A stretch of 62,860 nt of DNA, filler included, from Asterionella formosa (Eukaryota): assembly GCA_002256025.1 (NCBI GenBank). It is 20 parts of 20 records of this genome, joined end to end, with 100 filler letters (N's around TTAATTAATTAA, not from the genome) between each part and the next. Parts side by side here need not be neighbours in the genome. Positions count along the whole stretch, not along the records: positions 1 to 28,027 come from NKIB01001328.1; positions 28,128 to 29,863 come from NKIB01001329.1; positions 29,964 to 31,698 come from NKIB01001330.1; positions 31,799 to 33,533 come from NKIB01001331.1; positions 33,634 to 35,368 come from NKIB01001332.1; positions 35,469 to 37,203 come from NKIB01001333.1; positions 37,304 to 39,037 come from NKIB01001335.1; positions 39,138 to 40,871 come from NKIB01001336.1; 12 more parts are not named here. One strand, given 5' to 3'. A program made the translations under genes and the position numbers. This document shows, piece after piece, positions 1 to 62,129 of this stretch (positions are counted from its first letter, which is position 1; each line of letters opens with the position of its first letter). The notes beneath the pieces are model-generated. The model made no database searches, was not told where the DNA came from, and saw only the letters and a program-made list of their open reading frames with translations.

Positions 1-1499
1 TGCATCGATAATTCGTATTTTTCTGGGGCTATTTTGACTCCTAAAACTTTCTCCGACTTAATTGTCCTATTAGGGTGCGGCTCTCTCTAAGCTATTGAGG
101 ATCCATGTACATAGTAATATATAAAGAAAGATTAAAATTGGCAATGAGAAATCATCGATATTGTTGAGCGCCATTGTGAGTTTTCCGATTTTACATATTC
201 GACTATATCTAAACGAGTAAGTACAAGCTACAATGAAATTAGTTTCATAATATGCTAGCGAATAATCTACCGGTATTCTACTTAAGGACTAATAATAAAA
301 TAGCTTCATGTTAGAAAATCAACAATTTTCATTGGTTTCAATAGTTGTACTGACAATGCCGGCAAAGTATATAATTTTTCAGTAGGATAATAATTATACA
401 CCGGTATGATTCTGCCATCAGTGCGTACATATTCATCTACTCCGTAAATCCTTCGTGCGCTCACCATAGGAACGATCGATTCCTCATTGTTCATCATCAC
501 GCACCACCGTGATAGTAGTAGACTAAACTGATCGCTTGTACAATGCGTGGTGAACAGGGCGGAGCAACAACACTGCATGTGACATTGATGATCAATCGAA
601 GTCACTAAATATAGAAACAAAAGACACTAAAGAATTAGCTAAATTAGCTGAAATGTGATCTAGTAAGTGTCAAAAATGCATTGCCAGTTCAACAGGGTAA
701 CCTGATTTGACCCAAATTTTGGCGACAGCTGCCTTCGACCTATTTATCTCAAGAACGGCCACGAAAGCACAAACTTACAAGTATTAACATTGCTCCTGCG
801 CATACATGCCAAGGAAGAACTTTGCCTGAAACAGAATCAACGTATTTCTAATATTCGTCCCAAAATGTATGATTACCAGTTGACTCTCAGTTTTTAGGTC
901 ATACCTGGTAAATATACCATAGTCTACTGTAGCTGATACCAGTACCAGTGGTACCCCTGGTATTTGTACAGCTCATATGACAATCGGAATACTAAAGTCT
1001 ATACCAATACCTGGTAATCTAATTAATAGTCTATGACCATGGGTGTTAAAAGCTTTGTACTCCTTCCTGTCTGGCTGATGGGTATCTCCTTACGTAGAAC
1101 TTACCTGTTGTAGTACTAGTACTTATACCTATCATTGCTAGCCTTCTTGCTAGTTTTCGCTTTTGACCTTTCTCTGTCAATTCTCAGTTTCTTAAATTAA
1201 TAAGCTTACTCTTAAAGCCTAGTTTCTATCCCATTCATCATACTTTGAGAGCTTGCTCTTTTGTTGATGCAAACCCTCTTTTGATTGATCTGAAACATCC
1301 ATCTCATTACTTAGTTTCTTGACATCATGGGAATGCTCCATTTGGTTCATTGGCCTATAATCGAGTCGACAGTTCTCGTGACTCATAGTATTCATTGATA
1401 CTATATTCTTGGCACACAGGTATGTTAGTCAGTACAAATAAATAAATAGTATACACCATCTATGTATATATACTGATGTATGATGATCATAATAAGGTA

Positions 1500-2232
1500 C
1501 CAGTAAAAAACTGCCATGACCCAGCATTGAGAATATTTTTGAACTGCCGTTACCCATTGAATGCAGAATAACACGTTTTGCAATCAAAACTTAAATAAAT
1601 GTAAATTTTGAGAGTTCTGGCTCCTTCCCGAGCATATAGGCTAGTCAGCTATCTAATTAGTTTGAGATCTGGAGCAAGTTGTTCATCTCGATAGATTGCC
1701 TGAAATGGTTGCCCATGAAGAACACGGATTAGGGTAAGTTTAGAAGTCACCGCATCATATGATATATGATGATCAATATAAAAATTTCGATATTGATTTG
1801 AACCTTCACCTCATTTGGGACAATATAGTATATCTTGTCTTGGTATTGACTTCTTCGGAGATGGCAAATTATTTAGGCGCACGGCATCATCATGCAAATG
1901 CGTTATGTATGATTACGGGTATACCAGCCAGGTAGGGAGTACATACCAGGTTTTCATCACACCTTTCTAATGACACATATGACAAGTGCTTTAACACATG
2001 ACCTAATCCGTCCTCGAAAATACATATAAATTTATATATGTTTATCAAGAAAAAAGTAAATACTGGTACTCCTGATAAAATAATTCTATCAGAATTCTAA
2101 CACAACGGCTTGATGGATCGATGCTGCTCTGACACTATCGAACAAATGGATCCAGAATTCGGTAGAATTTACCATAGTCGGAGGAGTCAAACAAACACCC
2201 TAACTCAATGGGTCATGGCAGTTTTTTACTGG
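1500..2232. mobile_element. Non-autonomous TIR element (MITE), 733 bp, TA target-site duplication; probably IS630-Tc1-mariner superfamily
   Basis: Perfect 24-bp inverted repeats CCAGTAAAAAACTGCCATGACCCA (1500-1523) and TGGGTCATGGCAGTTTTTTACTGG (2209-2232). TA lies on both sides (1498-1499, 2233-2234). No transposase ORF inside. Confidence 0.88.
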
Positions 2233-2448
2233 TACCTGGTACCAGGTACCAGGAACCAGGGGAGGGGTACTCGTTACCAGGGTAGAAGAGGTGAAATTAA
2301 CTGTCGTGTGCATACGATATATGTATAGTGTTCGTACATCCATGTTGTGGTGGTCCTACTGTCATTTTCAAGAAAGGAGACCCATCCTAACCAACCCAGC
2401 GACCAAGGGAAAGTGAAGAACCACCTGTGGTCACGAAAAGGAAGAAAA

Positions 2449-3144
2449 ATGAGAAGTTGGACCTCCGTTATCTTATTGGCAGCAACAACAACAACAGAAT
2501 TCGGTGTTGCGTTCATCAGGACACCACTTCCTCTTCTACGACGATCGTCATTATTGCCACAACAGCTCCGAATGACAGACAAACCAGCTGGATCATTTTT
2601 CAATAAAATTCCTGAACGAGATGATTCCGAGAAGAAACCAGATGAATCCATCGATTTTGACAAGCAAGTCGCGGACTTGCTAGCCGCCAGAACCAAAAAG
2701 GGCCCCCCTCCGTCAACAGTTGGAGGTGTCCCAATCAATGGATTTTCCGTTGCCTCTGTCGGCCGAGCCAAACCATATATTGGTCTTGGACCACCCGACG
2801 TGCCAGCCAATGATCCAACAAGGCCAGAATACGACGATCAAGGATACACACTCTACAAGGACGAAACAACCGGTCAGAAAGCTCGTGTCTTCGAAGCCCT
2901 CGTCGAGTATCCCTGCGACTTTACCTTGAAGATTGTAGGACCCAACGAAGGATCCTTTGTGGCAGAGATTGTTCAGTGTGTTGCAGACTCGTGTGAAGTC
3001 AAGTTGGAACAAGTGCCGTACACGACGAGGGACGTGGGGAAGTGGACGAGTGTAACTGTGAAGGCGCCTGTGCAGAATGCCGATATGCTCTACCAGCTGT
3101 ATGAAAATGTGGACCGGGATCCTCGAGTCAAGTTCAAGTTTTAA
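2449..3144 (+). CDS. DUF493/YbeD-like protein, probably plastid-targeted
   Basis: C-terminal LVEYPCDFTLKIVG...GKWTSVTVKAPVQNADMLYQLYENVDRDPRVKFKF matches DUF493. Likely ATG at 2449 gives a signal peptide ending VA-F followed by an R/S/P-rich transit-like segment. Confidence 0.82.
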   Translation: MRSWTSVILLAATTTTEFGVAFIRTPLPLLRRSSLLPQQLRMTDKPAGSFFNKIPERDDSEKKPDESIDFDKQVADLLAARTKKGPPPSTVGGVPINGFSVASVGRAKPYIGLGPPDVPANDPTRPEYDDQGYTLYKDETTGQKARVFEALVEYPCDFTLKIVGPNEGSFVAEIVQCVADSCEVKLEQVPYTTRDVGKWTSVTVKAPVQNADMLYQLYENVDRDPRVKFKF

Positions 3145-3311
3145 CGGGAAAGGCAAATTGACAATGCCTGTTTGGTGCGCATTCCGAATAAGGATGTTAT
3201 TATAGAATTCTCGCAAGAAGGTACTCAATGATGCTTGCTCTCATGCATTTTACAATAACTCATTGAATTATCTTGAATAAATAAAAATGGCGTTGTCACA
3301 CATCGTACTAT

Positions 3312-4583
3312 CTATGCTTTGGTTGGGTCCTTCTCCATGATATCGTGGACGTACTTAAGAAGCATGGCATCCAACTTTGATTCAGGATCGTACAATGGGT
3401 TGACTTGACCCTCCTTCATTCCGCACACGAGATGATTCACATCACGATGCTCGGCTTCATCGGCACGCACAGCATACATGAGATCCAAAATACTCCCGTG
3501 TTCACCCAGCTTCCAGTAAGCCTTGGCGATTGGAGGCGCATGTTCTGTCTTCCATTTTGCCAGTTCCTCTCCCTCTGGAGCATTTTCAATCGCCGCAATA
3601 ATTTTCGTGTAGGTTGCGCAGGCTTCCTCTTCCACATAGCCAACGAAACGATGGCAGAATTTGGGGGAAATCATGTATGCTGTCATAAACGCAAGCCCAA
3701 ATCCGAACTGCCCACCAATCACAGCCACACGAAACCAACGACCAGGATTCTTCATTCTGACAAACGTCAAAAGATGCATCCGCTCGTTGTTGGCTTCTTC
3801 GAGGAACATTTGAAGTAGCCCACCATCAGGAGTCATATTTCGTAATGAACTGAAGTGACGAATAATCGCTGCCACCATTCCGGGAACAGCAGCTATGGTC
3901 TCAAGATATATGACACGGTTCATGATGTTTGAAATGGTTATGCTGTCGTTTTTCCATCCAGTTGCTCGATCAAACAAAAAACGAACGGCCTTAACGGAAT
4001 TGAAGGCAAGCTGATCACGGACACCATTTGGTGGAACATGTGTTAACTTGACATTCAATTCTTCGGCAGTATAGTGCCCATGTCCTTTTCCGGCTTGGTA
4101 GAATTCCATTCCATCGCGACCAATTCCAAGCGGATGACGGCCGGAGTCCTTGAAATGAGGATGTTTCTCATCTGTCGTCGAGACTTCCTTGGGAGAATTA
4201 AGGGCAGCGCGATCGATGGCCTCGATGAAGCGCTCAAAGGAAACAGATCCTCCTGCCTTTCCAGCGTAGTAGAGGTCTCCAATCTCGACGATCTCATCAT
4301 CAGTGAACTTACTGTGATGCCTCCGAAGTAATTCCTTCAGCTCCCCAGCATCAATTCTCCCGTCCGAGTTGACATCGACTGCCATAAGTTCAGCCTTGAT
4401 CTGACGAACAACGGACATGTCGAGAACAGAAAGAGTTTTGTCAACCGTGCCTACCTCAGAAGACCAGGCCGGAGACGTTGAAAAGTTGGCGCATCGCACG
4501 AAGAACGCAGGTCCTTGTTGCTGAAGGAAGGCCCTTCGAGCCACTTTGGCTATCGGACGCGAAGCGAAGCGCATAGTCAGCAT
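3312..4583 (-). CDS. AOX: Mitochondrial alternative oxidase (ubiquinol oxidase) with N-terminal EF-hand
   Basis: Di-iron motifs LETIAAVPGM, EEANNERMHL, VGYVEEEA and RADEAEHRDVNH. R-rich mitochondrial-type presequence. EF-hand loop DVNSDGRIDAGEL. Confidence 0.95.
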   Translation of the reverse strand: MLTMRFASRPIAKVARRAFLQQQGPAFFVRCANFSTSPAWSSEVGTVDKTLSVLDMSVVRQIKAELMAVDVNSDGRIDAGELKELLRRHHSKFTDDEIVEIGDLYYAGKAGGSVSFERFIEAIDRAALNSPKEVSTTDEKHPHFKDSGRHPLGIGRDGMEFYQAGKGHGHYTAEELNVKLTHVPPNGVRDQLAFNSVKAVRFLFDRATGWKNDSITISNIMNRVIYLETIAAVPGMVAAIIRHFSSLRNMTPDGGLLQMFLEEANNERMHLLTFVRMKNPGRWFRVAVIGGQFGFGLAFMTAYMISPKFCHRFVGYVEEEACATYTKIIAAIENAPEGEELAKWKTEHAPPIAKAYWKLGEHGSILDLMYAVRADEAEHRDVNHLVCGMKEGQVNPLYDPESKLDAMLLKYVHDIMEKDPTKA

Positions 4584-5480
4584 TTTGGTCTATATCCCTT
4601 TCGTTGCGTTGGTTGGAACAAATGCGAAGGATGAAAAAAGTATTGCTTAATAATAAATATATTTGTGACCAAATCGTATCTCACATTTTGCTGGGAACCT
4701 TGAGGCCTATGAACCTTCAATTCCGGAGAATCTATGAATGAATAACATGAAGATGTATTTATTACATTGTACATAAGGCCTTAATCGAATCAAGGAAATG
4801 CATTTAAGTAATAATTAATACATGGGGCACCGATGACGACGTGGCCAGTCGTATGTAATGTATGTTTCTACATTGCCATGGCTATCATCAAACAAAGTGC
4901 GTATCGTCATGAGAAGGTTTGGGATTTATTGTTTTTGTTCTCGGTACCAGGTACCGGTACCTGGTACCAGCCATAGCTTCTTCGAAGCGGGACTCACCCT
5001 ACATGATCGCTCGTTGGAAATATATTTGAGTAGCCATGACAACAGACTATTCTACAGTACAGGGGTACCAGTACCAGGTAGCTCTATCAGCAAAATTCGG
5101 TCATTTTGCAAAAACTAAATGTTTAGCTTACTTTATCCGATATTAAATTGTTTGTTCAAGCAATATGAAAGCAAGTTGCAGGTACTCCACCGTACAAGGC
5201 ACCGTGTACCCCGTACCAGGTACCAGGAAGATGCTGTACTGCACGTTTCATGCGCACGCCCCTTTTCAGTTACAATTCACTCCCAATGATTTGTCCCATG
5301 CCTGCCAGACAAGATAGGCTAGCTTTCGGTGCAAAAGATATTTCTTAAGGAATTTAGGATAATGATAATTTGCAGAGTTAAACTCTGAACATGACATGGA
5401 TTTGCTGACTGATCAACCTGTTCAGCAAACTGCCTTCTTGCTTCAAAATACAAATAGGAATCGTTCTACATTTAGAACTT

Positions 5481-5546
5481 GATGACTACAAATAGAAATT
5501 GCTGACTACAAATAGAAATTGCTGACTATGAATAGAATTTGCTGAA
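5481..5546 (+). repeat. 20-bp tandem repeat, ~3 copies
   Basis: GATGACTACAAATAGAAATT / GCTGACTACAAATAGAAATT / GCTGACTATGAATAGAATTT. Confidence 0.85.
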
Positions 5547-5611
5547 ATGACTAGAACTTGAGGGTGGATACAAATAGATTTTCTGAATGACCCTTCTGCA
5601 AATGAAGTACA

Positions 5612-6500
5612 CCACCTAAAAACTGAGAGCAATCCTTACTTACCCTATGTTACAACAAAAATTATTTTAGTCCAATTACTTGGTGATGTTGAAGCAAGTA
5701 TGAAGTTTATTGTAGCTTGTCCTCTCAGGCACCACTAGTAGATCTGAATATAACTTGGGTATTATAAACTTGGGTGAAGTTAATATTTCTTGAGATATGA
5801 AAGTTTCTAATGTCATCGTTTTGCCTCATAAGGATGACTCTCATTAAATGGTTGTAATACATACATGAGGAGCGAGTTTTTAATCTTCCATTTTCACCCA
5901 AGTACCCTATTGTTGCCACGAAAACTTTTTGATGCCACAAAATTATTAGTCCATTACAGATACCTACCCTTTATTTATTATCCCTTTCGATGTTTTCTTC
6001 ACATAATAATAGTCGGTTTCGACGATACTCCACTGTTAATATTTGGTTTCAGGTAAAAAGCAACTTCAGTTATTTATTTTAGTGACGGTTTAAGTAATAT
6101 TTAATTACGTCTACCGCGTGACAGCCTACCACTTGTTGTTTGACAATCCTCATACATAAAATATGTAGGCCATATAATAACTGCTGGCAATGAAGCTGTG
6201 TACTCTGGGTAAACGTCATGATGATGTTGCTGATCAACAAAGCCATGACAATAATGAAAGAAAATTTTGTTTAAATATTGAAATGTGAATCAATAATGGG
6301 TTTTGAACGTAATCTCATGCAGATTATGATATATCATACTAGAACAGCACATCTGTTCGAAAGCATCGTGCCTTAATGTGACAAAGAGGGATCGAGAAAT
6401 CATTGATAGTATTGAGCGCAATTGTGAGTTTTCCAATGTTACATATTCGACTATATCTAAACAAATCTACAACCTAAAATGAAAATTATTTCATAATATA
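5612..6500 (+). mobile_element. Left part of a degenerate TIR element family (end CCACCTAAAAACTGAGAG)
   Basis: 5612-5865 aligns, inverted, with 15590-16089. 6393-6500 aligns directly with 146-253. The same end motif occurs inverted at 884-901, 16072-16089 and 21031-21048, each followed by TA. Confidence 0.65.
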
Positions 6501-6529
6501 TAAGGCTTGGTATGCTTGATGATGAGGAG

Positions 6530-7630
6530 CATTGTGAAGTGGAATTGCTGTTGACACTTAGTAACATAATACCATGAGGCATGAAGCATCCTACTCTCTT
6601 CCCCCATTTCCTGCAGTCAATTTTCCTTAAGTAAAAGGTAAAAGGCAGTCAGTTGAGGGGCTATAGAGTATAGTAATCAAATTCCCTAAAATAAAGGGCA
6701 GTCAATTTCGGCAACAAAATCAAGGGGCTCTTGAATATATTGATGGTACCTGGTACCAGTAATTTTTCAGTCAAAAACGGAGCATATGAAATATACAGTA
6801 TATCCTTAATGTGAAAGGTAATTGCAGGATTGAGTAATCCAAAAACGAAGCATATGCTATATTCAAAAAATGTTCTACATGAAGGGCAACTGGCTAGTTC
6901 GCATCCAACATACAAATTTTTTAAAAGTTTGGCAATCAAAAAATAGAGCATGTGAAATACACCAGCGTTGCGAGAAGCTCTATCTGCGAGGGCCTCCTAG
7001 TCGAGTACACAAGATAACTGAAGGTAATACACGAACGAGGGTGGAGACTGCCTGCAAGTATTTTTTCCGGCGCTGCGAGACGAACAGCCTGCGAGGGCCT
7101 GCCAAGCCAAGTACACAAGATTACGAGTAGGCAGACTCCTCTCCTCCCGAGTAGGGTACTATCTACCGTAGGCAATTCACAAACTAGCTATCGGCGCGCT
7201 TTTCGCCATTACATTGCTCTTTCAGTTAACATTGAAACCATATTTTAGATAGTTTGTATGTTGGATGCGAACTAGCCAATTGCCCATCATCATATAAAAC
7301 ATATATTGTATATTTAATATGTACAGTTTTTGGAGTACTCAATCCTGCAATTTGCCCATCATATAAAACATATTTTGGATATTTCATTTGCTCCGTTTTT
7401 CGACTGCCAAACTACCTTCAATATTTTCAATAGCCCCTAGATTTTATTGCCGAAATCGACTGCCGTTTATTGAAGGGAATTTGATTACTGATATCTATAG
7501 TCCCTCAATTGAGTGCCATTTAGTTTAGGAAAATTGACTTCCGAAATTGGACGAGAGTAGGAGGAGCTACATGAAGGCACAAAATGATGGTTTTCTTTAA
7601 AGTGTCCACAGCAATTCCCCTTTTCACATC
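6530..7630. mobile_element. Foldback/long-TIR non-autonomous element (~425-bp imperfect arms, ~250-bp core)
   Basis: 6530-6955 is the imperfect reverse complement of 7205-7630, e.g. GGCTAGTTCGCATCCAACATACAAA / TTTGTATGTTGGATGCGAACTAGCC and AGTAATCAAATTCCCT / AGGGAATTTGATTACT. Ends approximate. Confidence 0.82.
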
Positions 7631-9174
7631 CCTGCTATCTTCCCCCAGGATGCTCCAATGTATACAAAATCTGGTCATTAATGCCTCAAGTACTGACTCT
7701 TCATCAAATGGATCTGGCTGGTTGTTGGATAATTCGACTTCTTATGGGATTCATATCGTCACATCATGCTTGCTTTGTCACAGTGGTGCCAAAATCTCGG
7801 TTCCCCTTTCTGTTGATTTCCGATAGCCTTTCCGGTCAACTCCTTCGCTAAATTTTGTATGTAGTGATAAATAAATTAATGATTAATCAAAAGTAACCTC
7901 AATGAGTTGTTGGGTATCAAAACTCGAAACGTTATGGTACTAGGTCAAAGTTAGGCTTCCATCTCATCATTAAACCGGTATTTTTGTAGTATGTTTTTAT
8001 GTTTTCTACGTGTTCTACACTGTCTCAAATCAGATCTCAGCAGCAAGTTTTAGTGCTCATGTGTTGGCTTTTTTCCGCTGCCCTACAATAGTATTGTTTC
8101 ATTGCTTTCTAATCACAATATTACTTTTGTTACTTCTGCATAATCTTCTAAAATGACAACGAAAAGTCATCAATCTCAATGATCTATCGCAAACTCCGTA
8201 AAACAGCCAGAACATGATGGAACCGGTGTTCTGCATTATCTCATATTCAACAAGGAAGAGAGGACAGGTATGTGCTGGTTGATTGTTGTTGTCATATTTG
8301 AGTTCCTGCCATGGTTGAGTATTCTAATTATGAAACATATTTCTTCCTCTTCAGAATGTTGATGAAGGCCATTGTCATGTTACTCCTCTACTTCCTGACG
8401 ATGCAACAAATCAGTATCCACTGGTCAAACCAGCTTGTCCAATGAGGTGAAATATGTTGCCAGTTGAATGTTGTTTTCATGAGGCATAATAAACACACAC
8501 TACCATTATTCTTTTCCTGTTTCCCAATGCTAGCAAGCCACTTTTATCGAAACTCGCACAAAGATTGCAAATTCTTCAGGTCACAAACAATGTGGGCAAC
8601 ATATCTCGCCAGCACCAACAACATATTACTCCATTGCTCCCTATCAACCTACTCAAACCTGTCCTCCTCAATTTTCAAAGCCACAAATGCCCACATCAGC
8701 CAGTAAATTTTCGACGCATCTTGCTCCTCCTCCTGCCAGATACTACCTGGTACCAGAAGTCTGCATCGCCAGCACCAAACCTCCACTATCAAGCTGTTGC
8801 TCCTCCAACACCTCCGCAACCACAAGTCCGAATCAATACAGAAACCAGTACTTCCTCTAAATCCATTCAGGAATCGATTTCTGCTCCTCCAGGCCCAATC
8901 TGAACATTACTGAAATTATTGTCGTTGCAACGACAAAAAAGTGTGAGTTGACAATTGTTAATGAAAAAGCGTTGACAAATCTGGACATGTTTGTTTGTTC
9001 AAAAATTGTTTCCAAACTTCAATGACTGCTCTGTAATTGTACAGAGATTCTAGAATGTATTGAAAATGCATTGACAAATTTTCACATGATTTTTCAGCTG
9101 ACCCATTTTCTTTTTCACTTTTTACTCTACTCCCTGCTTGTCATTTTTACGTCTTACCTTTCGATTACCGTTTC

Positions 9175-10045
9175 ATACTTTGGTTGCTTAATAACATTGT
9201 GTCGAATTTTCGATGCTTGTTACAATTATTCTTGTGTGACTATTTTTCATGCATATACTGGTACCGGTATTTTCGGTGGTCCATGCATTTTTGATGTGTC
9301 CAAACTTTTTCCCATGATAATTCTATGTACTCCTTATGTTGCTCGATGGTCCCTGCTGCTCAAACTTAAAATTGACTGCCGAAAAATCCACTGTGCCCCA
9401 TATTGCCCCTAAATAAAAAAATTCTGAAAGAAACCAAAGATTACTTAGACAACCATAGTTCTCATCGAAAAGCAAGACGACAGCTAGGGTGGGGATTGCT
9501 GAAGGCAATACGCGGCCGAGGTGATCGCTTGCCTGCGAGCATACCGGTACATTTGTTCGATGCTGGGTGGCGCGAGTAGGTTGACCATACGAGTGGTGCC
9601 CCCGGCGCAGCGAGAAGGTCTCTTGCCTGCGAGTATACATGTGTTCGAGGCTGGGTGGTGCAAGTAGGTTGACTGAACAAGTGGCGCCCCCGGCGCTGCG
9701 AGAAGGTCACCCTACGACTGCCATCCCAGTCGAGTACACATGTATACAAAAGGGCATGTAGCCGCCGAGAAGGGTATTGTTTAAGCAATTCCCACTCTAG
9801 CTATCGTCGCGTCATTCGCTTACCTACTGCCCACAAATTTAGCATAAATGTCAATTTTAGCCTACTATTGCCCATAATATAAAATATATTTTGGATATTT
9901 CCTATCTTCACCTCGAAAATTGCCAAAGGTCCGATATTGCCCATCATTAATTAATTTTGTATATTTCATATGTTCGCATTTTGGCAAGACAACAGACGCC
10001 AATTGCCCCTCGGTTTTCCAGCCCTGGGATTGCCGAAATCGGCGA
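9175..10045. repeat. Relative of the 6530-7630 element with an internal 94/88-bp tandem duplication
   Basis: Tandem copies at 9528-9621 and 9622-9709. A 25-bp inverted repeat (9476-9500 / 9784-9808) brackets them. 9790-10045 resembles 7170-7460, and 9175-9500 resembles 11268-11535. Confidence 0.75.
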
Positions 10046-11267
10046 GGGGTATGCGGTTGATTGTTGGATTGCTTGTCTTCTTGAGGCATTCATGTAGTCG
10101 CATCGTCCATTTTTCGTCGGACGAACGATGATATCGATACATCTGATGTTGGTGGCAAGTTTTTGCTCCGGTCATGTATGTAATGATGCTTATGTAATGG
10201 ATATTCTACCAGTTACCGGCAGTCATCTAGTCTACATACGTACGTGGTACTAAAAAAACCATGCATGGTTTAAGCTATGCTTTAACGCTTACTTTGAACA
10301 CGTTATAATATTATCTCTGTAGACTCGGTATTATTTTTACGAGACCTGAAATGTTGAATTATATCATTCACATATTCATTGATTTTGCGTACCGTCTGCC
10401 CGATTTCGTCCTCAAAAATATAGTTCTCACTCTATCTTGCCTGCCTTTGCTCTATTCGGGCTTGCAATAGGCAACGTTCGTCTTTCTTTGATCCCATCGT
10501 CTGCTGCTTGTTATGCTAGTTGAAGCGGATCGGTAAGTACAACAGTGAAACACTGAATGTGGATTGTAGATCGTATTTATTGGGCCGACTTTCCGATTTG
10601 ATTGCTTCTGTGGTTTGTTTTAATCGCTTCCATTGTTGTTTGTCGTTACACACTGTTGTTTTGTTTCGATTGTACATATCTACATAGAACCAGCCAATGC
10701 ATTTATCAATGACTACTCATTGAAGATGTGGTATTGTGCCGTTGTTGATCGTATTTCTTGATTTGTATAGTCATTGACAATGATGTCAATATTGCCACCA
10801 AGCAATGCTTTTCTTGTATTAACGCGCTTTGCTACATTTCTACTACGAGTGCGTATCAGAAGCTACATGAATACTCAGCTAGAGAGAGTCAATAGTGCTG
10901 GAGCAGCATGGTGATCACGCTTGCTCAGAATGGAATGATCAGGGTTGCTTGTTTGGTGGGCGGAGAGGAATGACTGTTGCGGAAATACTGCTACTGGTGT
11001 CAGGCTACTACAGCGATGCGCATCATGGTTGCAGCAAACAGACCATTTACGCTACATAACGATGCAGGTCTACATTGGGTTCAGCTTTTTTCTTCTTCTT
11101 CTTTCGGTCTTCGATTGTGTGGTGGTGATGGAAAGTCAATGTTGCCTGTGTAAGTACTACTACAATGAGTCACAATGCATATGTCTCCATTGGAACTCTT
11201 ATTTTTTACTTCATTTCTAACCCAAAACAATTTTTTCTATTTCTCATTTGATGCTACTTATTACATC

Positions 11268-11569
11268 GACTTTGGTTGCTCCAAACATCATGTTCAATTT
11301 TCATTGATGTTGCATGTTACAATCATTCTCTTGTGTTTTACGCTTGTTGTACCATCTCTACCGGCATGCATATTACCGTTATTCTGGTTGTCATGCTAAA
11401 ATCAGCAATTTTATTGCCGAAAAATTCGATGTGCCCCATATTATCCTTAAATAAAAATTACTTAAGAAATTACTTAGAGCCTAAAAATTACTTAAAAGGG
11501 GCCCGAATGGCAAGACGACAGCTAGGGTGGGGATCGCTAGCTGACAGTCGCCACCCCTGGTCGTGTCTT
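11268..11569 (+). repeat. Dispersed direct copy of 9175-9500 ending in a GC-rich hairpin
   Basis: Shares ACTTTGGTTGCT, TGCCGAAAAAT, TGTGCCCCATATT and GCAAGACGACAGCTAGGGTGGGGAT. Hairpin AAGACGAC..AGGGTGG / CCACCCCT..GTCGTGTCTT at 11512-11569. Confidence 0.7.
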
Positions 11570-11700
11570 ACAATATGAATAATAGAAGACGGCAATATAA
11601 ATTATTATAATAAAGCTATCAAGGGTTTACTTTTTCAATCTGTCCAACATCAAAAGTTCATCCGTTTTGACGATGTTGGTGTTTGAACTTTAGAATCAGG

Positions 11701-13026
11701 ATGCGTTTTTTTCTCATCGCCATTATGACCCTGATTATTGGAATTTCATTGGTCCCTTTTACGGGGTTATTCTCAGCGGACGATGGTATCGTTGCTATTC
11801 AAATGTTGAAAAAAGAGGATAAGCTGGGCTTCGTTCCGGATGGTGGAAGGAACGACATCAGGAACAAGGAAACATACATGTCTTCATCTCATTTCGAAGC
11901 TCCTGGTACTTATCGAACTGAAAATTTAGATGAGTTGTCTGAGAAGATGGAAAAATTCGTTTCAAAGGAATTGAAAATGGTAGACAAGTCCAAGGTTGCA
12001 TCGAACGAAGAAAGATGGAGGGAAGCAAGGCGCGTTCAAGCAACTACTTCTCTCCACACATGCCAACTGCACAACGAGACAGTTACCATACCAACTGTAC
12101 CCTATTTTGTTATCATTGGAGCTCAAAAATCTGGCACAACCTCCATAGCCCGCTATCTAGGAGAACATCCTGATATTTTGCCCCAATTGCATCCAAGACG
12201 AAAAGAAGTACACTTTTTCAATAATGTGTTCCAGGGGCTCATAGCGAATCACTGGGTACTTAATAAACATAATGACACCTTGCCTGAGTTTTGGTGCCGA
12301 TCTCGGAAAAGATATGTCGAGACTATGTATCAACTAGATATCTTTCTGAGGACAATCAATGAAACAGGTGGTTCAACAAATCTTGTCTCCTTTGACAAAA
12401 CACCATCCTACATACACCTCGATAATTGCCCCGAGTTTCTGAAACGTACCTGTCCATGGATGAAAAAGATCATTGTAGTCCTCCGAGATCCAGTTGACCG
12501 AGCTTATTCTCAGCATCAAATGGACAGCATGAGGAAAGAAAAGCGCTCATTTGAACAGCGTATACGCGACGAAATCAAAAAAGCAAGGCTCACTGGTCTT
12601 CATGACTTCCCAGATATGCCCGATTCGCTAGAAGAGATCCAAAAAATTGAGGAGATGCCCAATCTCAACAGAACTTCTGAACAAGAGTACGAATCTTTTC
12701 GGCAGTTGATTGGGTATCCCATGCTGAAAAAGGGTCTGTATGCTATTCAGTTACGTAAGTGGTTTGCATATTTTAATTTTCCGGACGAGATCCTGGTGCT
12801 CAAGTACGAGGAATTCCAGAAAGATCCAGCAACTGCCTACAATCGTGTCTTAGGGTTTGTTGGTCTGAGGAACCACACGCTCAAAACATACGAGAAGCAT
12901 CTGGCTGGACGATACGAACCCATGCCTGAAAATTGCCGACGATACCTGGAAAAGTTCTTTCGGGCGTACAATGATCAACTAGCTGATTTGCTAGGTGAGG
13001 AATGGAGAAATGTTTGGACTAACTAA
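11701..13026 (+). CDS. Type II membrane sulfotransferase (heparan-sulfate 3-O/NDST-like fold)
   Basis: 5'-PSB motif IIGAQKSGTT, KEVHFF, DKTPSY and 3'-PB motif LRDPVDRAYS. N-terminal hydrophobic anchor from the ATG at 11701. Confidence 0.9.
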   Translation: MRFFLIAIMTLIIGISLVPFTGLFSADDGIVAIQMLKKEDKLGFVPDGGRNDIRNKETYMSSSHFEAPGTYRTENLDELSEKMEKFVSKELKMVDKSKVASNEERWREARRVQATTSLHTCQLHNETVTIPTVPYFVIIGAQKSGTTSIARYLGEHPDILPQLHPRRKEVHFFNNVFQGLIANHWVLNKHNDTLPEFWCRSRKRYVETMYQLDIFLRTINETGGSTNLVSFDKTPSYIHLDNCPEFLKRTCPWMKKIIVVLRDPVDRAYSQHQMDSMRKEKRSFEQRIRDEIKKARLTGLHDFPDMPDSLEEIQKIEEMPNLNRTSEQEYESFRQLIGYPMLKKGLYAIQLRKWFAYFNFPDEILVLKYEEFQKDPATAYNRVLGFVGLRNHTLKTYEKHLAGRYEPMPENCRRYLEKFFRAYNDQLADLLGEEWRNVWTN

Positions 13027-13073
13027 GCGTGATACGACGTTGATAGCTCCCATTTCTCCCGTTATAGTTGTCG

Positions 13074-14831: not shown

Positions 14832-15589
14832 GATCAATGAACAGTAGTTATGAAATAGGTATGGATACGGTAGACTACCGGTATTACATATGGTGTTTTA
14901 TGGTTCATCATCAATAATCCTGTGGATCCTAATAAACGCACCAGTTTTGCTTGATATGATACCCACCGATAATGGTAGACCACTTAATTTTAATTTTAAG
15001 TGTCGATTGTCGAGGACTGACTGATGGCATACCGTACGTACATTTGTACATTTATTTTTATTTAATTAAATGACACTCTAACATATCGCTATGCCGGTAT
15101 GTACAGTGTGCTTCATATGTTTCACTCATCACTGGGAGAAAATTAGCTTTTCTAGCAGTGCAGACATGTAAATGTATACTAACTCCGGTACCTGGTACCA
15201 GTAGTAGTGGTCTGGTTGTATACCGCTACCAGGTACCAGGTACCAGTACCTACATACAAGTTACGGTAATTTTGTTGACATCACGATCTCAGCAATATAC
15301 AATGTAGTCGCTGCTTTGACCCAATACTTTTTGTACTGCAATATGCTGGCTAGTAGCGCATAATGCCGTTTTTTCATTCGTTGTATGATTTTAAGCTCTA
15401 AATATGATCATTTTGGCAGATGAAAACCTAACTCGAATCGAGTATAGTTTACTTTGGGTCATTGGGTCATTGCTCGATTTGAGTACCGGTAACGTTTACC
15501 TTACATACTGCCAAATCGAAAACATTTTAGAATACTTACTATTCGCCAAAGTGATCAAACCACCCCATATTCATCTACCGTACTGCCTG

Positions 15590-18700: not shown

Positions 18701-18769
18701 AATCGGGCAATTGAGCCGGAGAAATCGTTCGAGTCAAAATGGCCCCCGAGATATTGAATTATCGATGCA
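18701..18769 (-). repeat. Dispersed inverted copy of positions 1-70
   Basis: Its reverse complement TGCATCGATAATTC..GGGGCCATTTTGACTC..TTTCTCCGGCTCAATTG aligns with 1-70. Confidence 0.65.
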
Positions 18770-19462: not shown

Positions 19463-19544
19463 TTTAAGCAAATTGATTCTAAGCAAAACTATTTTAAGCA
19501 AACCCTCTTTGAGCAAACGTACTTTAAGCAAGATTTTGCTTAAA
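19463..19544 (+). repeat. 15-bp-period array with TAAGCAA core (5 units plus 1 inverted core)
   Basis: TTTAAGCAAATTGAT TCTAAGCAAAACTAT TTTAAGCAAACCCTC TTTGAGCAAACGTAC TTTAAGCAAGATTTT. Confidence 0.85.
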
Positions 19545-20254: not shown

Positions 20255-20380
20255 AATAAGCAAAATTGCTACTTTAAGCAAACGCACTTGAAGCAGACCT
20301 ACTTTAAGCAAATCTGCTTTAAGCAAAACGGTCCTACATTAAGCGAAACGAACGAGAAGCAAATGGCAGAATAAGCAAAA
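20255..20380 (+). repeat. Second ~15-bp-period TAAGCAA array, same orientation
   Basis: TTTAAGCAAACGCAC TTGAAGCAGACCTAC TTTAAGCAAATCTGC TTTAAGCAAAACGG..., plus degenerate units. Confidence 0.8.
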
Positions 20381-51516: not shown

Positions 51517-52078
51517 AACTCAACTGCTAGAGCCTGAAATGAAATGAATAATTGGAGGACTGAATTGGCAGCTGCTTGAATATTTCGCGATGACAAGAAG
51601 AGTCATAAATGTACTATGAACTGTAATGATTATTTATCTGTTCTTGTATGGCACACCAGTTTAGCTTTGTAAATCGATTCCCAAGTTGACACTCACCACG
51701 AAAAAGGAAGAAATTCCAAGATTTGATATTATGCTAGAAATGTACGATGAGGCGAATGTCATCGATGTACCGGTATTTATTGGCTTGCACCCAGTCGAAA
51801 GTCAAGCAGTGAAGAGAAATACATAAATATATTCATGTATGAATTAAACTACATGATTCCTTTTTTTTTGGNNNNNNNNNNNNNNNNNNNNNNNNNNNNN
51901 NNNNNNNNNNNNNNNTTAATTAATTAANNNNNNNNNNNNNNNNNNNNNNNNNNNNNNNNNNNNNNNNNNNNCAACAGGTGTTAGTCAAGTTCTGATATAT
52001 TTGATATAACCCTAACCCGATATACATCTGTATCAATGTGCAGGATCGCTCGCTCTCCCACACTTAGGGGAAAACCTT

Positions 52079-53703
52079 TTACCTATGAAAAGGTTTGACA
52101 CGACGAATATTAATTCGTTCTATAATACGCTTAGTGCGTTGAAAAGTAACTGTACCATTGGCATGAACTTGAATAATAGTATAAGGACCTCGTCCACGAT
52201 CATCCAAAGTAGTAGGACTATCCAAAAGTATTAAGATCTCATCACCCACTTTGTAATCATAAGATCGACGACGGAAATTAACACGATGTAAGCGTTCGTC
52301 GATTATAACTTGTCGATGTTGATGTATCAATTGTAAATCTGTAATTAAAGGAATTTTTAATATCATATCACATTGAAAAACCCATGCTCCTGGTGAAATA
52401 CGTGATATACTATGAATAGTAGCTCCACCTGCATATGACGCAGCTGCAAAACATGTATCCACAATATTTTGGGCTTGAAATTCATTGATTGGAGGATGAG
52501 CCTTTAACATAGTAACTCGTAGACTATTGCTGATAGATTGATGTAAACGTTCACAGATAGCATTTGCTTGTGGATTCTTTACTGTAGTAGTCACATCTTT
52601 GATTCCATTCAATAGTACTAACATGTGTAAGAAAGGAGCACCAGTAAATTCACCTCCATGGTCATGTATACAACGTTCTGGACGGGGATATCTGGCTAAC
52701 CAATCATTTTCAAATTTCATTGCAATATATTCTGATGTTTTATTGGTGATACGTGTGCCAAATTGGTGACTGTGTCAATACAAGTTAGAGCACGAAATTC
52801 AATCGTTTGAGCAGCCACTGTTATCTTCCATGGACCAATTAGATCTACTGCGACTTCTGACCATGGTAATAATAATGCATTCCTGGGTGTAAGTTCACCA
52901 AAACCAGTACCAGGTAATTTTGTACATTGACATGCTTCACATACTCTTACAATATGTTCCACTCTTGCTTTTAATATAGGGTGATAAAAATGTGAAGCGA
53001 TTGTAGCATTTAATCTTGTCATACCCACATGAGCTAACATCTGATGATACCAATTAATAATAGGATCCAATAATGATGTAGGAATAGCAATACGCCAAGT
53101 ATCTCCTGGATTCTTCACAAAACATATTAAAAATATGTCATGAACATTGATAGAGGGAAATTTTAACGGATATGTTTGTTGATTGAGAATCAATTGTATA
53201 TCATGTATTAAATTGTAATCCAGAGGATATTGAATATTGTCTGTCAAGATTGGATGATTAAGGAAACAGGTAAGCAAAGGTTCATCATCTAATTCAATTG
53301 AAAAGGTAGAAATGGATGTTGATGCTGGAGATTTCGGTCCAATATCATCCCCCACCAAAGACTCAAGCCTCGGGAGGCGAGAGATGCAATCTGCAATAGC
53401 ATTGTCAGTCCTTTTCACATAGTGAAAAGTAGGATGATATTCTTCAATATAAAGTCTCCATCTTAGAACACGTTGAGTATGTAAATTATTATAAATAAGA
53501 TTTCGAGGATCAGTGTGAACATGGTGTAGAACTGCACCCAATAACATAGAGCGAAATTCTTTGAAAGTTTCTACCACAGAAAGTAATTCATTTTCAATAG
53601 TAGTATAATTCTTTTGAGCAGCAGATAATTTGCGAGAATAATAAGCAACTGGGAGATCATTTTGCATAATGACCGACCCTAATTGATAATCAGAGGCATC
53701 AGT
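52079..53703 (-). mobile_element. Ty3/gypsy RNase H-integrase fragment, degenerate
   Basis: TDASDYQLG, PVAYYSRKL, NYTTIENELL, HHCC (H..AHVG..CEAC), AVDLIGPW, DHGGEFTG, NPQANAICER and a GPY motif. Frameshift near 52720. Confidence 0.92.
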
Positions 53704-57467: not shown

Positions 57468-58358
57468 GAAGGTGCCATAGGCCGACGGGAAGCTGCCGCC
57501 GAAGGCCACGCCTTGGTCAAACAGCGGGCGCGGGCCGCCGGTGATGTTCTTCACCACCGACAGGTACTTCAGGCCCGTGGCCGTGGGCACTGACGGGAAG
57601 GTGGTGAACAAGGTGGCGGTCACCGCCGTGCCGATGTCGGCCCACTTGGCCGTGTCATAGGCGGCCTGGCCGGCCAGGGCCTGGGCCGTGACCTGCATGG
57701 CGGCGAACTGGTTGAACAGCTCGGCATCGCCCATCACGCCGCACATGGGCACGGCGCCGTGGTACTTGACCTTGTTCTTGGCGGTGGCGGCGGCCTCGGC
57801 CTCGATGGCGGCGCCGGTGATGTGGCCGCCCATCGAGTGGCCGGTGATGTAGGTGCGGGTGGGCGCGGCCAGCACGCGGCCGTTGTTGGCGGCAATCTTG
57901 TTGAACTCCAGCGCCAGGGCGTTGGTGTCTTCAACACCGACACGCACGTCGTAGTAGTTCTTGCTGTAGCTGGACGCCGCCCAGGCGTAGCCGTTCTGCA
58001 CCAGCCAGCGGCGGATCGACGGGTTGCTCACACCCAGCGCGGCGCCAGTGCCGGCGTAGCCGTGGGCGTACATCACCAGCTTGCCGTTCCAGTTGGCGGG
58101 CACCTCCACGCGGTAGGCGGCGCCGTTGAGCACACCGGCCCAGCGGCTGGTGGTGCCCATGGCCACCACATCGCTCGGGTCGTCGGCCATCGCGGTGAAG
58201 GTGGTGGCCGCGGTGGCGGTGAAGGGGCGGCTGTCCTGGGGGCGTGTCTCGTCGGGCTCGGGCGGGGCGGTGGTGCCGCCGTCACCGCCGCCGCAGGCGG
58301 CGATCAGCAGGGTGGCCGCCAGGGCCAGGGTGGTCGGAAGGGAAGGAAATTTCTGCAT
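57468..58358 (-). CDS. Bacterial lipoprotein alpha/beta hydrolase (3'-truncated)
   Basis: GGAG RBS before the ATG at 58358. Lipobox LIAAC, WNGKLVMYAHGY and nucleophile elbow GHSMGG. Very high GC. Confidence 0.85.
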
Positions 58359-58534
58359 GTTTGTCTCCAGTTCGCAGGTCAGGCTGGCCGGCGCCGGGCG
58401 AGATCGCCATGCAGCAGCTGGTCCTGTGCGCAGCGTATCGGCGCGCGGCTCGCAGCAGCAGGCGTGCTTTCCCCTGTGCCCTTGTCGCAGCAGGGACAAA
58501 GCCCCTGCGCCAAGGTCCGGCGCCCGCCGTGCCG

Positions 58535-59198
58535 TCAGACCACCTCGACACCCGCCGCCGGGGGCTGCGCATACAGCGCCTGCACCAGCGCGTCGCGCCG
58601 GGCCAGCGTGGCGCGCTGGTTCACATAGCCCTTGTCGGTGATCTCGCCGCCGTCGATGGACGGTGGCTCGGTCATCAGCACGAAGCGCGCCACCCGGCGC
58701 GACGAGCCGCCTGCGCTGGCGTTGAAGGCCGCCAGGCGCGCGCGCAGGATGGCCGCCAGCTTCTCCAGCGGCGTGCCGGGCGCCGGGTCGTCGGCCAGCA
58801 GCTTCAGCCCGGCCGCGCTGGGCCAGCACAGGGCGCCGGCAAAGGGGCGGTCCTGGCCGGTGATCACCGCATCAAGCACGTAGGGGCTGCAGGCGGCCAC
58901 CAGGGCGGGGCGCAGCGTGCCCACGCTGACCCAGGTGCCACTGTCGAGCTTGAAGTCCTCGGTCACCCGGCCGTCGAACACCAGGCCATGGGCCGGGTCG
59001 GCCTCGTCGACAAAGCGGGCCGCGTCGCCCAGCTTGTAGAAGCCTTCTTCGTCGAACGCCTCGGCCGTGCGCTGGGCATCGGCGATGTAGCCGGTGGTGA
59101 CGGTGGGGCCCTTCACCCGCACTTCGAGCTTGGCGCCGTTGGGCACCAGCTTGATCGTGATGCCCGGCAGCGGCAGGCCCCCCAGGCCCACGCGCTCG
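58535..59198 (-). CDS. fcs: Bacterial feruloyl-CoA synthase-like AMP-dependent ligase, C-terminal part
   Basis: GLPLPG..KLVP, KGPTVTTGY, FDEEGFYKLGDA, FDGRVTEDFKLDSGTWV and EPPSIDGGEITDKGYVNQRA motifs. Confidence 0.85.
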
Positions 59199-62129
59199 NN
59201 NNNNNNNNNNNNNNNNNNNNNNNNNNNNNNNNNNNNNNNNNNTTAATTAATTAANNNNNNNNNNNNNNNNNNNNNNNNNNNNNNNNNNNNNNNNNNNNGA
59301 GATTGGAATTCGCTCAGGACGACAATGTTTTCCTGACAAATTTATTTTGGGGCAGGAGTTTTCGACATGAAGCAATGATGGAATCAAAGAAGCAGGTCCG
59401 ATTGTGGATTACGAACTCTACTACCTGGTACCAGTACCGGCAAACGAGTAAACCATGCACAGGCAATACTTTTCTTGTGTAAACGTACTAAATAGCAACA
59501 TTTTCTTATTTGGAGGATTCTTTATTCGTTCAAAATATTTAATGAATTGCTTTGCAATGACGTTTTCCCTCAAAGCAAGAAACGAAAGAGGACGAGGTAA
59601 AGAATATTAGAAAATTATATACGTAAGAAAACTACATAGAAGTAGATATCAAGCAAACATGCCTACCGGTATCTTAATATATGACGCACACAATATTCAC
59701 AATACCACTGGTACTACCTAGTACCTGGTACCAGGGGTACCGCTAACCATCGCACAACTTCTAAAAAAGTCAACCGAGATGATGATGACAAACTATTTTA
59801 TCAGGATGACAAACTAATTGGGTTCTTGTCGCTTCACTGTCAAGGGCGAAATGTGGAAATGAATATGCATGCATTGATAGCGTATTCCATACTACTATGA
59901 ATGGGTAAAGAAGGAAAGTGATAGACAGATCTTCGGCGTTATTTTCCAGGGCTTTAGTTCACCCAAAAGGGTAACATTTTTGAACATGTTGTTGGTGAAA
60001 TTGAAATGGTGTTTACAATGACAACACAGAAGCACTTCGTTGACAATTAACCCGCAGTGACATTCTATAACGGAAAAATGGCATTGATCTTGGTGGGAGA
60101 AATGGATATGTCGTGATGATTGATGTAGAACTACCAAAAAATGTGAATGGAGACCTGTAGATGGAGCATTTGACAAAGTGAGCTCATCAGTACTAAGTTG
60201 TTGCGTTGGCGAACAATTCTTGACAAAAGCTAAATAGACTTCCAGTATACGGTACGCACCCTTTAAATTTTTACGCCAACACTTTGTATATGTATGAAAA
60301 TTTGCTGGTACCAGTAGTTGGGTGACAAGCAAGCATTGTCATTTGCTGACTGACGAAATATCGAGCTTCCAACTATAATGCTGGTGACCCTTCAATATTT
60401 TTTCTTTCTTTGACAAAATGGTGAACATTTCTCTCACTGTGTCGTGATGATCATGTTGAACCAATGGTGCCATAAAATAGTTTTCAAGTTTCGAATGCTT
60501 CTCAGTACCTTGTAAGCTGGAGCTCCCCTCGTCGCAATGAGAAAGAAATCAATTCCATCAAACCGTAGAACTACCCTGCAAGTATAACTTTCCATCATCG
60601 TGTTAGTTCGTTTCATATGCCTACCAAGAGTTGCTGTAACAGTATTTCTTTTCAATATAAATCTATTTACATGAATGACATGAATGAATTCACCGATGAT
60701 ACAGCACTCTTCGTGTACTTGCATATGGATGATCGGAACGCCTTGAGCGACGCCTAAATTCAGTATAGATGGTTTCAACAAGGCACCACAACAGCATGCA
60801 CCAACCCAAGATTCGATAAACTCTATGGTCGTCGGAAACTTCTTTGAAATGATAATATGTTTCAGATTCTCCCGATTTTGGTGAGAAACGGTGTTGGGAT
60901 GTCAAAATGAGCGACGGTGGTTGGGAATGGGGTTTTCTCTTGAACAGCGGTCCATTTCCATAGGACTTGGCCATGTACAATTGGGGCTGTCGTTTGGAAC
61001 GTAATCTTTGTTGTGCTGGAACAACTTGANNNNNNNNNNNNNNNNNNNNNNNNNNNNNNNNNNNNNNNNNNNNTTAATTAATTAANNNNNNNNNNNNNNN
61101 NNNNNNNNNNNNNNNNNNNNNNNNNNNNNCTTGAACAAGTTGTTGTCATGGGGCATGCGACAAAACATGCAAGAGACTGAAGAGAAGCAAACCAAGTTTC
61201 GCAGTGAAGCAGTCCCCAATGGAACCGAGCAAGTCAAGGTAGTGGGAGCCTAAAACGAAGAGTTTCTTGATGCAATGATTAATTTAACAAAAATACTACA
61301 GAGTAATAATGCAAGAAAGTTATTTATCCACTGTATTAAATCACATGATCCCTTTTTTGGTTGCAGTGTATATAAAGGTGTATATCACCACTCTACTTCA
61401 TTAAAATGCAATGATGTGTAATGTTCAATTCACTCTGCTCTCAAATTCTTGATTTTCAGCAGGAATAAAAGCTAGCTCCCACAACAAAATTCCTTGTGAT
61501 AAGCCAGATCAGACCAACTATTATCTTTTCTCCAACTCCTTGTCTTGTCTTGATGTCAAGCCTACCGGTATCAAGCAGACATTTTGAGATTACTTCGTCG
61601 TTTGATGAACAATGTTTCTAGAAGATGGCCAATTCGGCAGTGCGATACTTTTTAATTTTTTCCCAAATCTTTTCTATATTTCCCTTGGCTTTCATTGTCC
61701 TCCAATCATCATTTATCTTCTCTCATACAAGTTTAAACAGTTTTAATGTAGTATTATAACACTTGCATAAACTCGGACAGCTTTATTGTTAATGTGCTTG
61801 ATAGGGGTAGTACCAATGGTTTGGAAATGGAAGTTGTTATGACTTGGATATAGACAGTGAAGTGCAACAGGAAATCAGATTGCAATTCCAAATTGTTCAT
61901 TTCATGAAACAAAGTAAAACCAGGACTTTTTCAAAAGGGAAAGAAATTGGTAAATATCCTCTCTTATCCCACTCAACTTCAATCAATATACACCACCTAT
62001 CACCAATTTTGTTGATCCTAATGGGATTTGTAAAACAAAGTCCTTGCATGAGCCCCCCAACACTTTGATTCTCCAGCTCTTATTATTTCTTTCAACTGAG
62101 ATAAATTTATACAATTATTGACTTAAGTG

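Follow-up and report, generated by a model that had tools for sequence, protein, structure and literature searches.

TA-flanked short repeats in the Asterionella formosa genome as probable stacked excision footprints of IS630-Tc1-mariner transposons

Introduction

Non-coding DNA of Asterionella formosa carries large numbers of short units in which a core of a few nucleotides, most often CCGG, CCAG or CTGG, or CCWGG (CCAGG or CCTGG, the same core read in either orientation), lies between two TA dinucleotides, and in which successive units are often chained through a shared TA. These units were followed up in a window of 62,860 nucleotides, meaning the whole stretch of DNA analysed, which joins one contig of 28 kb and 19 contigs of ~1.7 kb from a genome assembly (GCA_002256025.1) of 68.4 Mb in 15,436 contigs. 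The units are probably excision footprints of TA-duplicating transposons of the IS630-Tc1-mariner group, and chains of CCWGG units would then arise mainly as elements insert and excise again and again at one place. Three lines of evidence bear on this reading: units that interrupt otherwise bare repeat copies at a duplicated TA, resident elements whose terminal bases match the cores, and a target preference of one element family that matches the CCWGG unit itself.

Abundance of the units

Every tract named in a preliminary description of the window was recovered at its place, and 11 of the 20 window pieces carry units, in agreement with the earlier view that they are spread over many contigs. 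Counting the five main types, the 19 eukaryotic pieces hold 78 units, whereas 60 order-2 Markov simulations gave 3.3 on average and never more than 8; chains of at least two units number 13, and no simulation produced one. The remaining piece (57468-59198, 71% GC), probably a contig from a bacterial contaminant, has no units. Counts were extended to a non-random sample of 399 kb from six long contigs, picked by length and repeat hits and read on both strands against an order-2 Markov expectation. There, TA-CCGG-TA (338 observed, 6.9 expected) and TA-CCWGG-TA (CCAGG, 184 and 3.7) are enriched ~50-fold and CCAG/CTGG units ~8-fold (CCAG, 122 and 15.1), with CCAGGG at 24 against 0.7 and CCCGG at 17 against 1.2. 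The excess of these cores is limited to TA..TA flanks among the 16 dinucleotides tested. Across the genome, one 20-mer chain has 338 matches and its reversed control none; TACCAGTGGTA/TACCACTGGTA are rare, with 159 occurrences against 82 for the reversed control. Extrapolation from the sample gives ~29,000 CCGG, ~31,500 CCWGG, ~21,000 CCAG and ~7,000 rarer units, a sum of 80,000-90,000, and can be checked on adjacent CCWGG pairs, of which the 33 in the sample predict ~5,700 while 5,576 were counted over the whole genome. The term satellite-like, applied earlier to these arrays, was too strong, since no run in the sample exceeds five units and 346 of the 415 runs are lone units.

A library or assembly artefact, which a fragmented assembly with a contaminant contig might suggest, has a negligible probability. 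Contigs of an independent run of 2025 (X2; contigs, not raw reads) span 2231-5160 with one differing letter and no gap and are identical to the window over 6519-6915, and the units avoid open reading frames (ORFs), decay by mutation and do not occur on the bacterial piece. The vicinity of contig starts (up to 500 nt) holds few units. The TA-core-TA units are a real genome-wide feature.

Insertion at a duplicated TA

The proposal that units are insertions at a duplicated TA drew on two paralogue pairs, and both hold. At one site of a foldback-like repeat, 28 of 32 aligned copies are bare, two carry CCGG and a further TA, one carries C and TA, and CCTGG-TA-CCAG-TA is found in the window copy. 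In the second pair, the copy at 9542-9549 is 6 nt longer than its paralogue, with five alignments of equal score owing to an adjacent substitution. When indels were tabulated from an all-against-all alignment of fetched loci, all 11 cases of a CCGG core with a 2-nt duplication were at TA. A larger set of loci, compared with less strict flanks, gave 1,168 indels of 5-30 nt, and 57 of these have a C..G core anchored on TA (CCGG 26, CCAG/CTGG 10, CCG/CGG 10, CCWGG 4, other 7), several of them representing one inherited event that recurs in more than one copy and those from a single alignment being unpolarised. Because the inserted letters are missing from most flanks, local duplication does not explain these indels. 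One TA of a repeat offers a paralogous series, being bare in most copies, occupied by a CCAG-ended element in locus L220 and by TA-CCAG-TA in locus L065.

Other stereotyped micro-insertions with a 2-nt duplication occur among the repeat copies of the fetched loci and are not specific to TA: 37 have the core GC (13 at CA, 8 at TA, 6 at AG), and 78 have the core C or G, 29 of them at TA. TA-GC-TA is enriched 2.6-fold in the 399 kb sample. These GC- and C/G-core insertions may be scars of another family.

Resident elements that match the cores

Elements of two kinds have ends that resemble the cores. The first is represented by 93 DDE_1 matches in the assembly (pogo DDE_1 E 3.4e-20), its full copies being ~2.3-2.5 kb long and ending TA-CCGT..ACGG-TA or TA-CAGT; with DDE_1, short terminal inverted repeats (TIRs) and TA duplication, the CCGT-ended elements belong to the pogo superfamily. 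The second, here called DD37D after the spacing of its conserved aspartates, ends TA-CCAG..CTGG-TA or TA-CCAC..GTGG-TA, with 154 exact TIR matches in the assembly for the CCAC-ended family and 39 for the CCAG-ended family. Inserted cores had been equated with the terminal bases of TA-flanked elements, and the resident CCGT, CCAG and CCAC ends do match them; for the cores CCAGGG and CCAGGGG the match is partial.

A transposase bounded by such TIRs was found in locus L236, a 3,381-bp element inside TA-CTGG-TA-CCAGG-TA on one side and TA-CCAGG-TA on the other, but it is frameshifted, and the only intact ORF seen (944 aa, L245:751-3585) lies in L245, a metagenome contig near-identical to an element in the window. 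L245 and locus L244 are 99% alike and stand at different sites, both inside CCWGG arrays. The transposase is ~930 aa long (~900-970 aa across the family) and has 151 homologues among longer proteins, with element ends CCAG, CCAC or CCGG; the only named homologues are from Fragilaria crotonensis, and sequencing runs that contain the stretch carry mostly freshwater or algal metagenome labels, both consistent with a freshwater diatom as the probable host. Pfam gave no match, DDE_1 (PF03184) and DDE_3 included, for five fragments, 38 homologues and L245, and a DDE_3 (PF13358) search of the assembly gave 0 matches among 16 candidates, which does not imply true absence. Three CCACC elements of 847-965 bp contain no ORF of 120 aa.

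Conserved residues and a structural model nevertheless point to a familiar type of enzyme. D463, D612 and D650, in DD37D spacing, are invariant in 38 aligned full-length homologues and are the putative catalytic triad. A model of homologue P0002 (mean pLDDT, the predicted local distance difference test score, 77) superposes on the Mos1 catalytic domain with Z 12.7 and a root-mean-square deviation of 3.0 over 190 aligned residues. Its best matches are Mos1, SETMAR and Sleeping Beauty (Z 11.3-12.7, Sleeping Beauty 11.3), with integrases at Z 8.7 or below; the best Foldseek E value for the same model is only 0.017. The transposase is therefore predicted from the model to have a mariner-type RNase H catalytic fold. 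With TIRs, TA duplication, one ORF, a DDD triad and this predicted fold, the CCA-ended element has the features of the IS630-Tc1-mariner group. It has no match to the DDE_1 domain (PF03184) of pogo; its motifs are colinear with those of the resident pogo enzyme, but the profile match is non-significant (probability 0.2%). DD37D spacing by itself is insufficient to place it in maT, and the element lists published in PMC7386202 and PMC7325037 may already include the family.

Relatives from metagenomes share these ends. From 80 related loci, 39 were checked for inverted repeats and 21 in detail, and 19 had both ends; 37 of their 38 ends follow TA, which is preceded by G (G-TA) in 28 of the 37, and CCAG is the commonest end (25/38). 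In locus L238 (C12351), a DD37D element has been rearranged so that its 3' part forms a long inverted duplication bounded by two right-end TIRs.

The sequence before the TA separates the two kinds of element, and with them the unit types. GG precedes TA at 44 of 66 TA-flanked DD37D ends and at 1 of 22 pogo ends; among units that stand singly, the TA has GG before it in 5% of CCGG and 38% of CCWGG cases, and the figure is 16% for CCAG/CTGG units, against 7% of all TA sites. On this match of flank profiles, CCGG units go with the CCGT ends of pogo and CCWGG units with the CCAG/CCAC-ended DD37D elements, and the single source family proposed earlier is not upheld. CpG transitions run at 2-4 times the rate of other transitions in two repeat families, and CCAG/CTGG units are probably to a large extent CpG-decayed CCGG; the flank mixture leads to an estimate of about two thirds for single CCAG units.

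Target preference, chains and orientation

The GG preference of DD37D elements is not merely an effect of landing in arrays: among the 44 GG-flanked ends, 19 adjoin a whole unit and 24 have GG without one, and the local background of GG before TA near CCWGG units is 16%. Ends lying directly after a whole unit number 19 of 66 for DD37D and 0 for pogo. The units divide likewise, 92 of 184 CCWGG units being chained against 29 of 169 CCGG units (17%). Elements lie within arrays as the preliminary description had it, for example in L236, L244, L245 and the miniature inverted-repeat transposable element (MITE) at window 1500-2232. Its larger proposal, that a family repeatedly inserts into and excises from its own footprints, stands as far as insertions at TA and elements in arrays are concerned; excision is unobserved, and more than one family is involved.

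An alternative is that single scars are footprints while chains grow by slippage or short tandem duplication, their orientation being scrambled later by A/T point mutation or by template switching within the near-palindromic array. The orientation of neighbouring units bears most directly on this. Among the 5,576 adjacent CCWGG pairs in the genome, 3,074 are in the same direction and 2,502 (45%) are inverted; pure slippage predicts almost no inverted pairs and independent events predict half, so the same-direction excess (55%, p 2e-14) leaves by calculation about a tenth of pairs to slippage. The earlier argument from mixed orientation is thereby strengthened, and the arrays lack the head-to-tail, single-orientation structure of a slippage microsatellite or satellite. 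Scrambling by mutation would also leave other variants, yet other single-base variants of TACCAGGTA occur 1-17 times each against 184, too few for such a process, and chains mix CCGG, CCAG and CCWGG and enclose whole elements. The unequal numbers of the two inverted pair types (1,002 and 1,500) and three polymorphic insertions that are formally tandem duplications fit slippage better, and as the general source of chains it remains unlikely.

Position relative to genes

That the units are almost wholly non-coding is borne out by a comparison with long ORFs: 14 of 475 main units fall in ORFs of at least 200 aa, although these span a third of the sample. Of the CCWGG units in non-coding DNA, half (50%) stand no more than 500 nt upstream of the start of a long ORF, compared with 16% of TA sites; for the 500 nt that follow a stop, the shares are 3% and 11%. 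The upstream concentration is what one would expect if the motifs were promoter elements, binding proteins or positioning nucleosomes, that selection keeps and multiplies and transposons only target, and the promoter association of ACAGT in Trichoplax was taken as regulatory (PMC2871265). Units have, however, arisen de novo inside unrelated repeats and transposons, an unlikely place for selection on promoter sites, and this explanation offers no source for the TA duplication; it is judged somewhat less probable even than slippage. A regulatory function may be a secondary role of the units.

An 88-bp hairpin MITE that lands in units

An 88-bp hairpin MITE (CAAGTTGCGG..CCGCAACTTG; 97 exact matches of one end with flank) is closely associated with CCWGG units. 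Many copies, read with their flanks, resemble TA-CCAG..CAGG-TA, as though collapse or excision between the ends produced CCWGG. Twenty-four copies were compared, a biased sample in that most were retrieved by their match to TACCAG at one end: 13 have an exact 3-bp CWG direct repeat, 23 have one with at most one mismatch, and 15 have TA at both outer positions. Such repeats show duplication of the centre of an existing unit, and they make an origin of CCWGG from this MITE highly improbable; the MITE probably lands in CCWGG units and does not make them. Another view of it, in which the element is 96 bp long, duplicates TA and has ends that are not symmetric, was abandoned after the same 24-copy test. 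Stretches between distant hairpin ends (L089, L231, L232) contain host-like ORFs and no recognised transposase, and are pairs of separate short elements.

Copies that duplicate CWG centrally in TA-CCWGG-TA (L171-L200, L231, L232) often stand near the starts of host ORFs. A degenerate end of the MITE was seen by eye near window 19238-19260.

Proposed mechanism and position of the cut

In the proposed mechanism, excision would leave 3' overhangs of 3 nt, to be joined by the host. Those of pogo elements with CCGT ends would be CCG and would pair through CG, yielding mainly CCGG and, as lesser products, CCGGG and CCG. Those of DD37D elements, with CCAG or CCAC ends, would be CCA; these have no means of pairing and would drop or overlap one A, so that CCAGG and CCTGG arise equally often. 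When a CCWGG scar forms at a GG-TA-CC site, its right TA has GG in front of it and its left TA is followed by CC. One preferred target would thereby become two, and chains would feed themselves. Later CpG decay would turn many CCGG units into CCAG/CTGG, and slippage would add its tenth or so of adjacent pairs. An independent cut of 2 or 3 nt at each end was excluded, as CCATGG is nearly absent though CCWGG is common.

A variant compatible with the footprint reading has the DD37D enzyme cut 4 nt inside, so that CCAG overhangs pair in the manner of Sleeping Beauty (C-G, A.A, G-C) to give CCWGG, and CCAG joined to GG gives CCAGGG. This would suit the asymmetry of CCAGGG/CCCTGG (24) over CCCAGG/CCTGGG (0), the bare enrichment of CCATGG and the predominance of CCAG among the ends of relatives (25/38). 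The CCAC-ended families, however, are the more numerous (154 against 39 TIR matches) and sit in CCWGG arrays, yet the CCAC scars predicted from them are scarce (CCACG 8, no commoner than other single-base variants; CCACGG 1), and known cuts lie 2-3 nt inside (PMC2170065). The variant is regarded as doubtful, if a more serious contender than slippage.

A strong, self-feeding form of the footprint reading has about even chances of being right. It holds that an unclassified, diatom-type DD37D family prefers CWGG-TA-CCWG, its own scar, and builds landing pads upstream of genes, that the CWG-duplicating 88-bp MITE lands in the centre of the scar, and that ~1% of the genome is a record of transposition written at one unit per event.

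Observations that weigh against footprints

Several observations count against the footprint reading. No excision and no allelic series of filled, scarred and empty sites was seen in the sequences compared. Alignment of runs X2, X7, X14 and X16 to window 850-20800 at 85% likeness, where repeats swamp the matches, gave no unit indel among the matches listed, and X2 contigs over 11469-15414, 15845-16337 and 16719-18603 carry 7, 12 and 15 unplaced gap letters, of which 7 and 12 are unit-sized. The paralogous series is loose: L220 and L065 agree at only 86%, and a search over 5 kb did not find the other end of the element in L220. Indels among repeat copies are mostly of other kinds (1,111 of 1,168), and they include 4 CCWGG against 26 CCGG insertions despite equal genome-wide abundance. 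The spectrum of cores in the 399 kb sample is narrower than that of known footprints, CC, CCA, CG and CCATGG being not or barely enriched, while CCAGGG (24, with CCCAGG 0) and CCAGGGG (3) are not derivable from a 3-nt cut. Of 94 excisions in rice, 8 were perfect, and flank deletions or filler were the usual outcome (PMC4423477).

The supply of elements is a further difficulty. An estimated 30,000 or so CCWGG scars face a few hundred resident element ends, and the family can only be presumed to be very active, as proposed earlier: the four DD37D copies fetched from the assembly are all broken or deleted, and the intact 944-aa ORF was seen only in the near-identical metagenome contig. Around 17 relatives from other hosts, ~13 kb of flank holds only 3 units; the DD37D family alone is therefore insufficient to make arrays, and host repair, the number of copies or elapsed time must also play a part.

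Relation to known systems

That TA-duplicating transposons leave footprints with terminal bases is already established (PMC2170065, bioRxiv 10.1101/659086, PMC9976928, PMC1636448; sources in this section are cited from the portions of their text available). The 5' ends are cut 2-3 nt inside and TA is duplicated (PMC2170065), and Sleeping Beauty footprints are variable and come from end joining (bioRxiv 10.1101/659086). Like those of Sleeping Beauty, Tc1 and Mos1, the present units show a TA duplication around a few terminal bases, consistent with end-joined short 3' overhangs (bioRxiv 10.1101/659086, PMC2170065), and have two mirror forms that differ centrally, TACWGTA there and TACCWGGTA here. 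Those systems were studied in assays at a single donor site, whereas here cores of 4-6 nt hold bases of both ends and are fixed and stacked at an estimated 80,000-90,000 places.

The nearest natural case is the Stowaway elements of intron 4 of Triticeae beta-amylase, where TIR fragments of 1-4 bp stand in a TA duplication and re-insertion took place at the TA of an older footprint (PMC1925063). That case is one intron at one locus, variable and, in the text available, free of chains; the present units are genome-wide and stereotyped, with a target bias that matches the scar. For CCGG, the best source is the resident DDE_1 pogo with its CCGT/CAGT ends and TA duplication, comparable to Passer, which leaves footprints of 0-4 bp (PMC9976928), and to Emigrant/Lemi1 (PMC1636448), though the available text on these describes no genome-wide accumulation of footprints. 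The CCA-ended element resembles pogo in its short TIRs, TA duplication, DDD triad and a single ORF within the 300-977 aa of pogo, and differs from pogo and DD37D/maT in having no Pfam DDE_1 or DDE_3 match (PMC7386202, PMC7325037). The Trichoplax pentanucleotide ACAGT, which can be read as TA-CAG, is likewise an abundant short repeat upstream of genes; it was described as a microsatellite or possible binding site, and the word footprint does not occur in the main text (PMC2871265). The available text of PMC12044402 does not mention footprints. A literature search that took in few subscription papers and no repeat databases yielded no description of footprints stacked across a whole genome, or of a target bias matching the scar, and among the papers listed for the motif TACCGGTA none on transposon footprints appeared, judged by title and the start of the abstract. 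What is added here is the DD37D transposase, two sources together with CpG decay, a measured target bias and a genome-wide count of orientation.

Features of the window

902-962: CCTGG unit (902-910) and the chain TA-CCAG-TA-CCAGTGG-TA-CCCCTGG-TA (937-962).
1500-2232: 733-bp MITE of the CCAG-ended DD37D family, with TIR CCAGTAAAAAACTGCCATGACCC (39 exact matches in the assembly), TA on both sides and an inferred empty site AAGG-TA-CCTGG; the units at 1498-1505 and 2227-2234 are its resident ends, not scars.
2233-2260: CCWGG chain adjoining this MITE, upstream of a long ORF; covered by X2 contigs without gaps.
4945-4970: mixed chain of CCAGG, CCGG and CCTGG, covered by X2 contigs.
5612-5629, plus strand: TIR end of the CCACC DD37D family, with CA in place of TA before it.
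6747-6761: two stacked units (CCTGG, CCAG) at the GG-TA site of the foldback repeat; 28 of 32 copies bare.
8744-8752: CCTGG unit, lacking in 12 matching repeat alignments.
9542-9549: CCGG unit in a repeat copy, lacking in 30 matching alignments.
15189-15248: two chains, CCTGG-CCAG and CCAGG-CCAGG-CCAG.
16072-16089, minus strand: TIR end of the CCACC family, TA-flanked.
21031-21048, minus strand: variant CCAC TIR end beside a CCAGG unit (21055-21063).
21156-21310: cluster of CCAGG, CCAG and CCGG upstream of a gene.
35469-35707, plus strand: 3' end of a young CCACT DD37D element; 35469-35710 matches L244/L245 at 99-100% identity.
39138-40871, plus strand: DD37D transposase with an internal deletion, represented by N- and C-terminal parts; locus L123 has this C-terminal ORF within a CCACC TIR.
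41124-41146: chain CCAGG-CCTGG-CCTGG.
43586-43738: two lone CCGG units (43586-43593 and 43731-43738), each lacking in another copy of that repeat.
45131-45231: densest cluster, with a four-unit chain and single CCAG, CCTGG, CCGGG and CTGG units.
46029-46094: CCWGG chains in both orientations.
59703-59739: CCACTGG unit and a CCTGG-CCAGGGG chain.

The foldback-like repeat, with long inverted arms at window ~6500-7620, has at least 40 matches in the assembly, and its arms are nearly perfect in locus L060. A non-coding repeat at window ~9500-11500 has a very high copy number, its summed contig depth in run X2 being roughly 1,000 times that of single-copy sequence. Fragments at 28128-29863, 42806-43800 and 51972-53703 are presumably from the gag/pol region of long-terminal-repeat retrotransposons; the CCGG units at 43586 and 43731 interrupt one of these copies. 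Broken ORFs at ~26400-27490 and 41880-42705, which we take to be Harbinger-type transposases, are a possible enzyme source for the CWG-duplicating MITE, and a minus-strand ORF at 3352-4581 presumably encodes an alternative oxidase-like protein with an EF-hand region.

Implications

Footprints are usually seen as rare scars at single sites, and here they are apparently a main source of short promoter repeats. If the reading is right, the units would provide a way of counting past excisions, which is hard in comparative studies, and would suggest a testable origin for promoter-linked short repeats that elsewhere are taken as binding sites. A transposase family missed by Pfam has also come into view, together with a near-identical intact copy (L245). 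Should the self-feeding form hold, the promoter regions of A. formosa would concentrate a record written by a process that is neither slippage nor the retention of element sequence.

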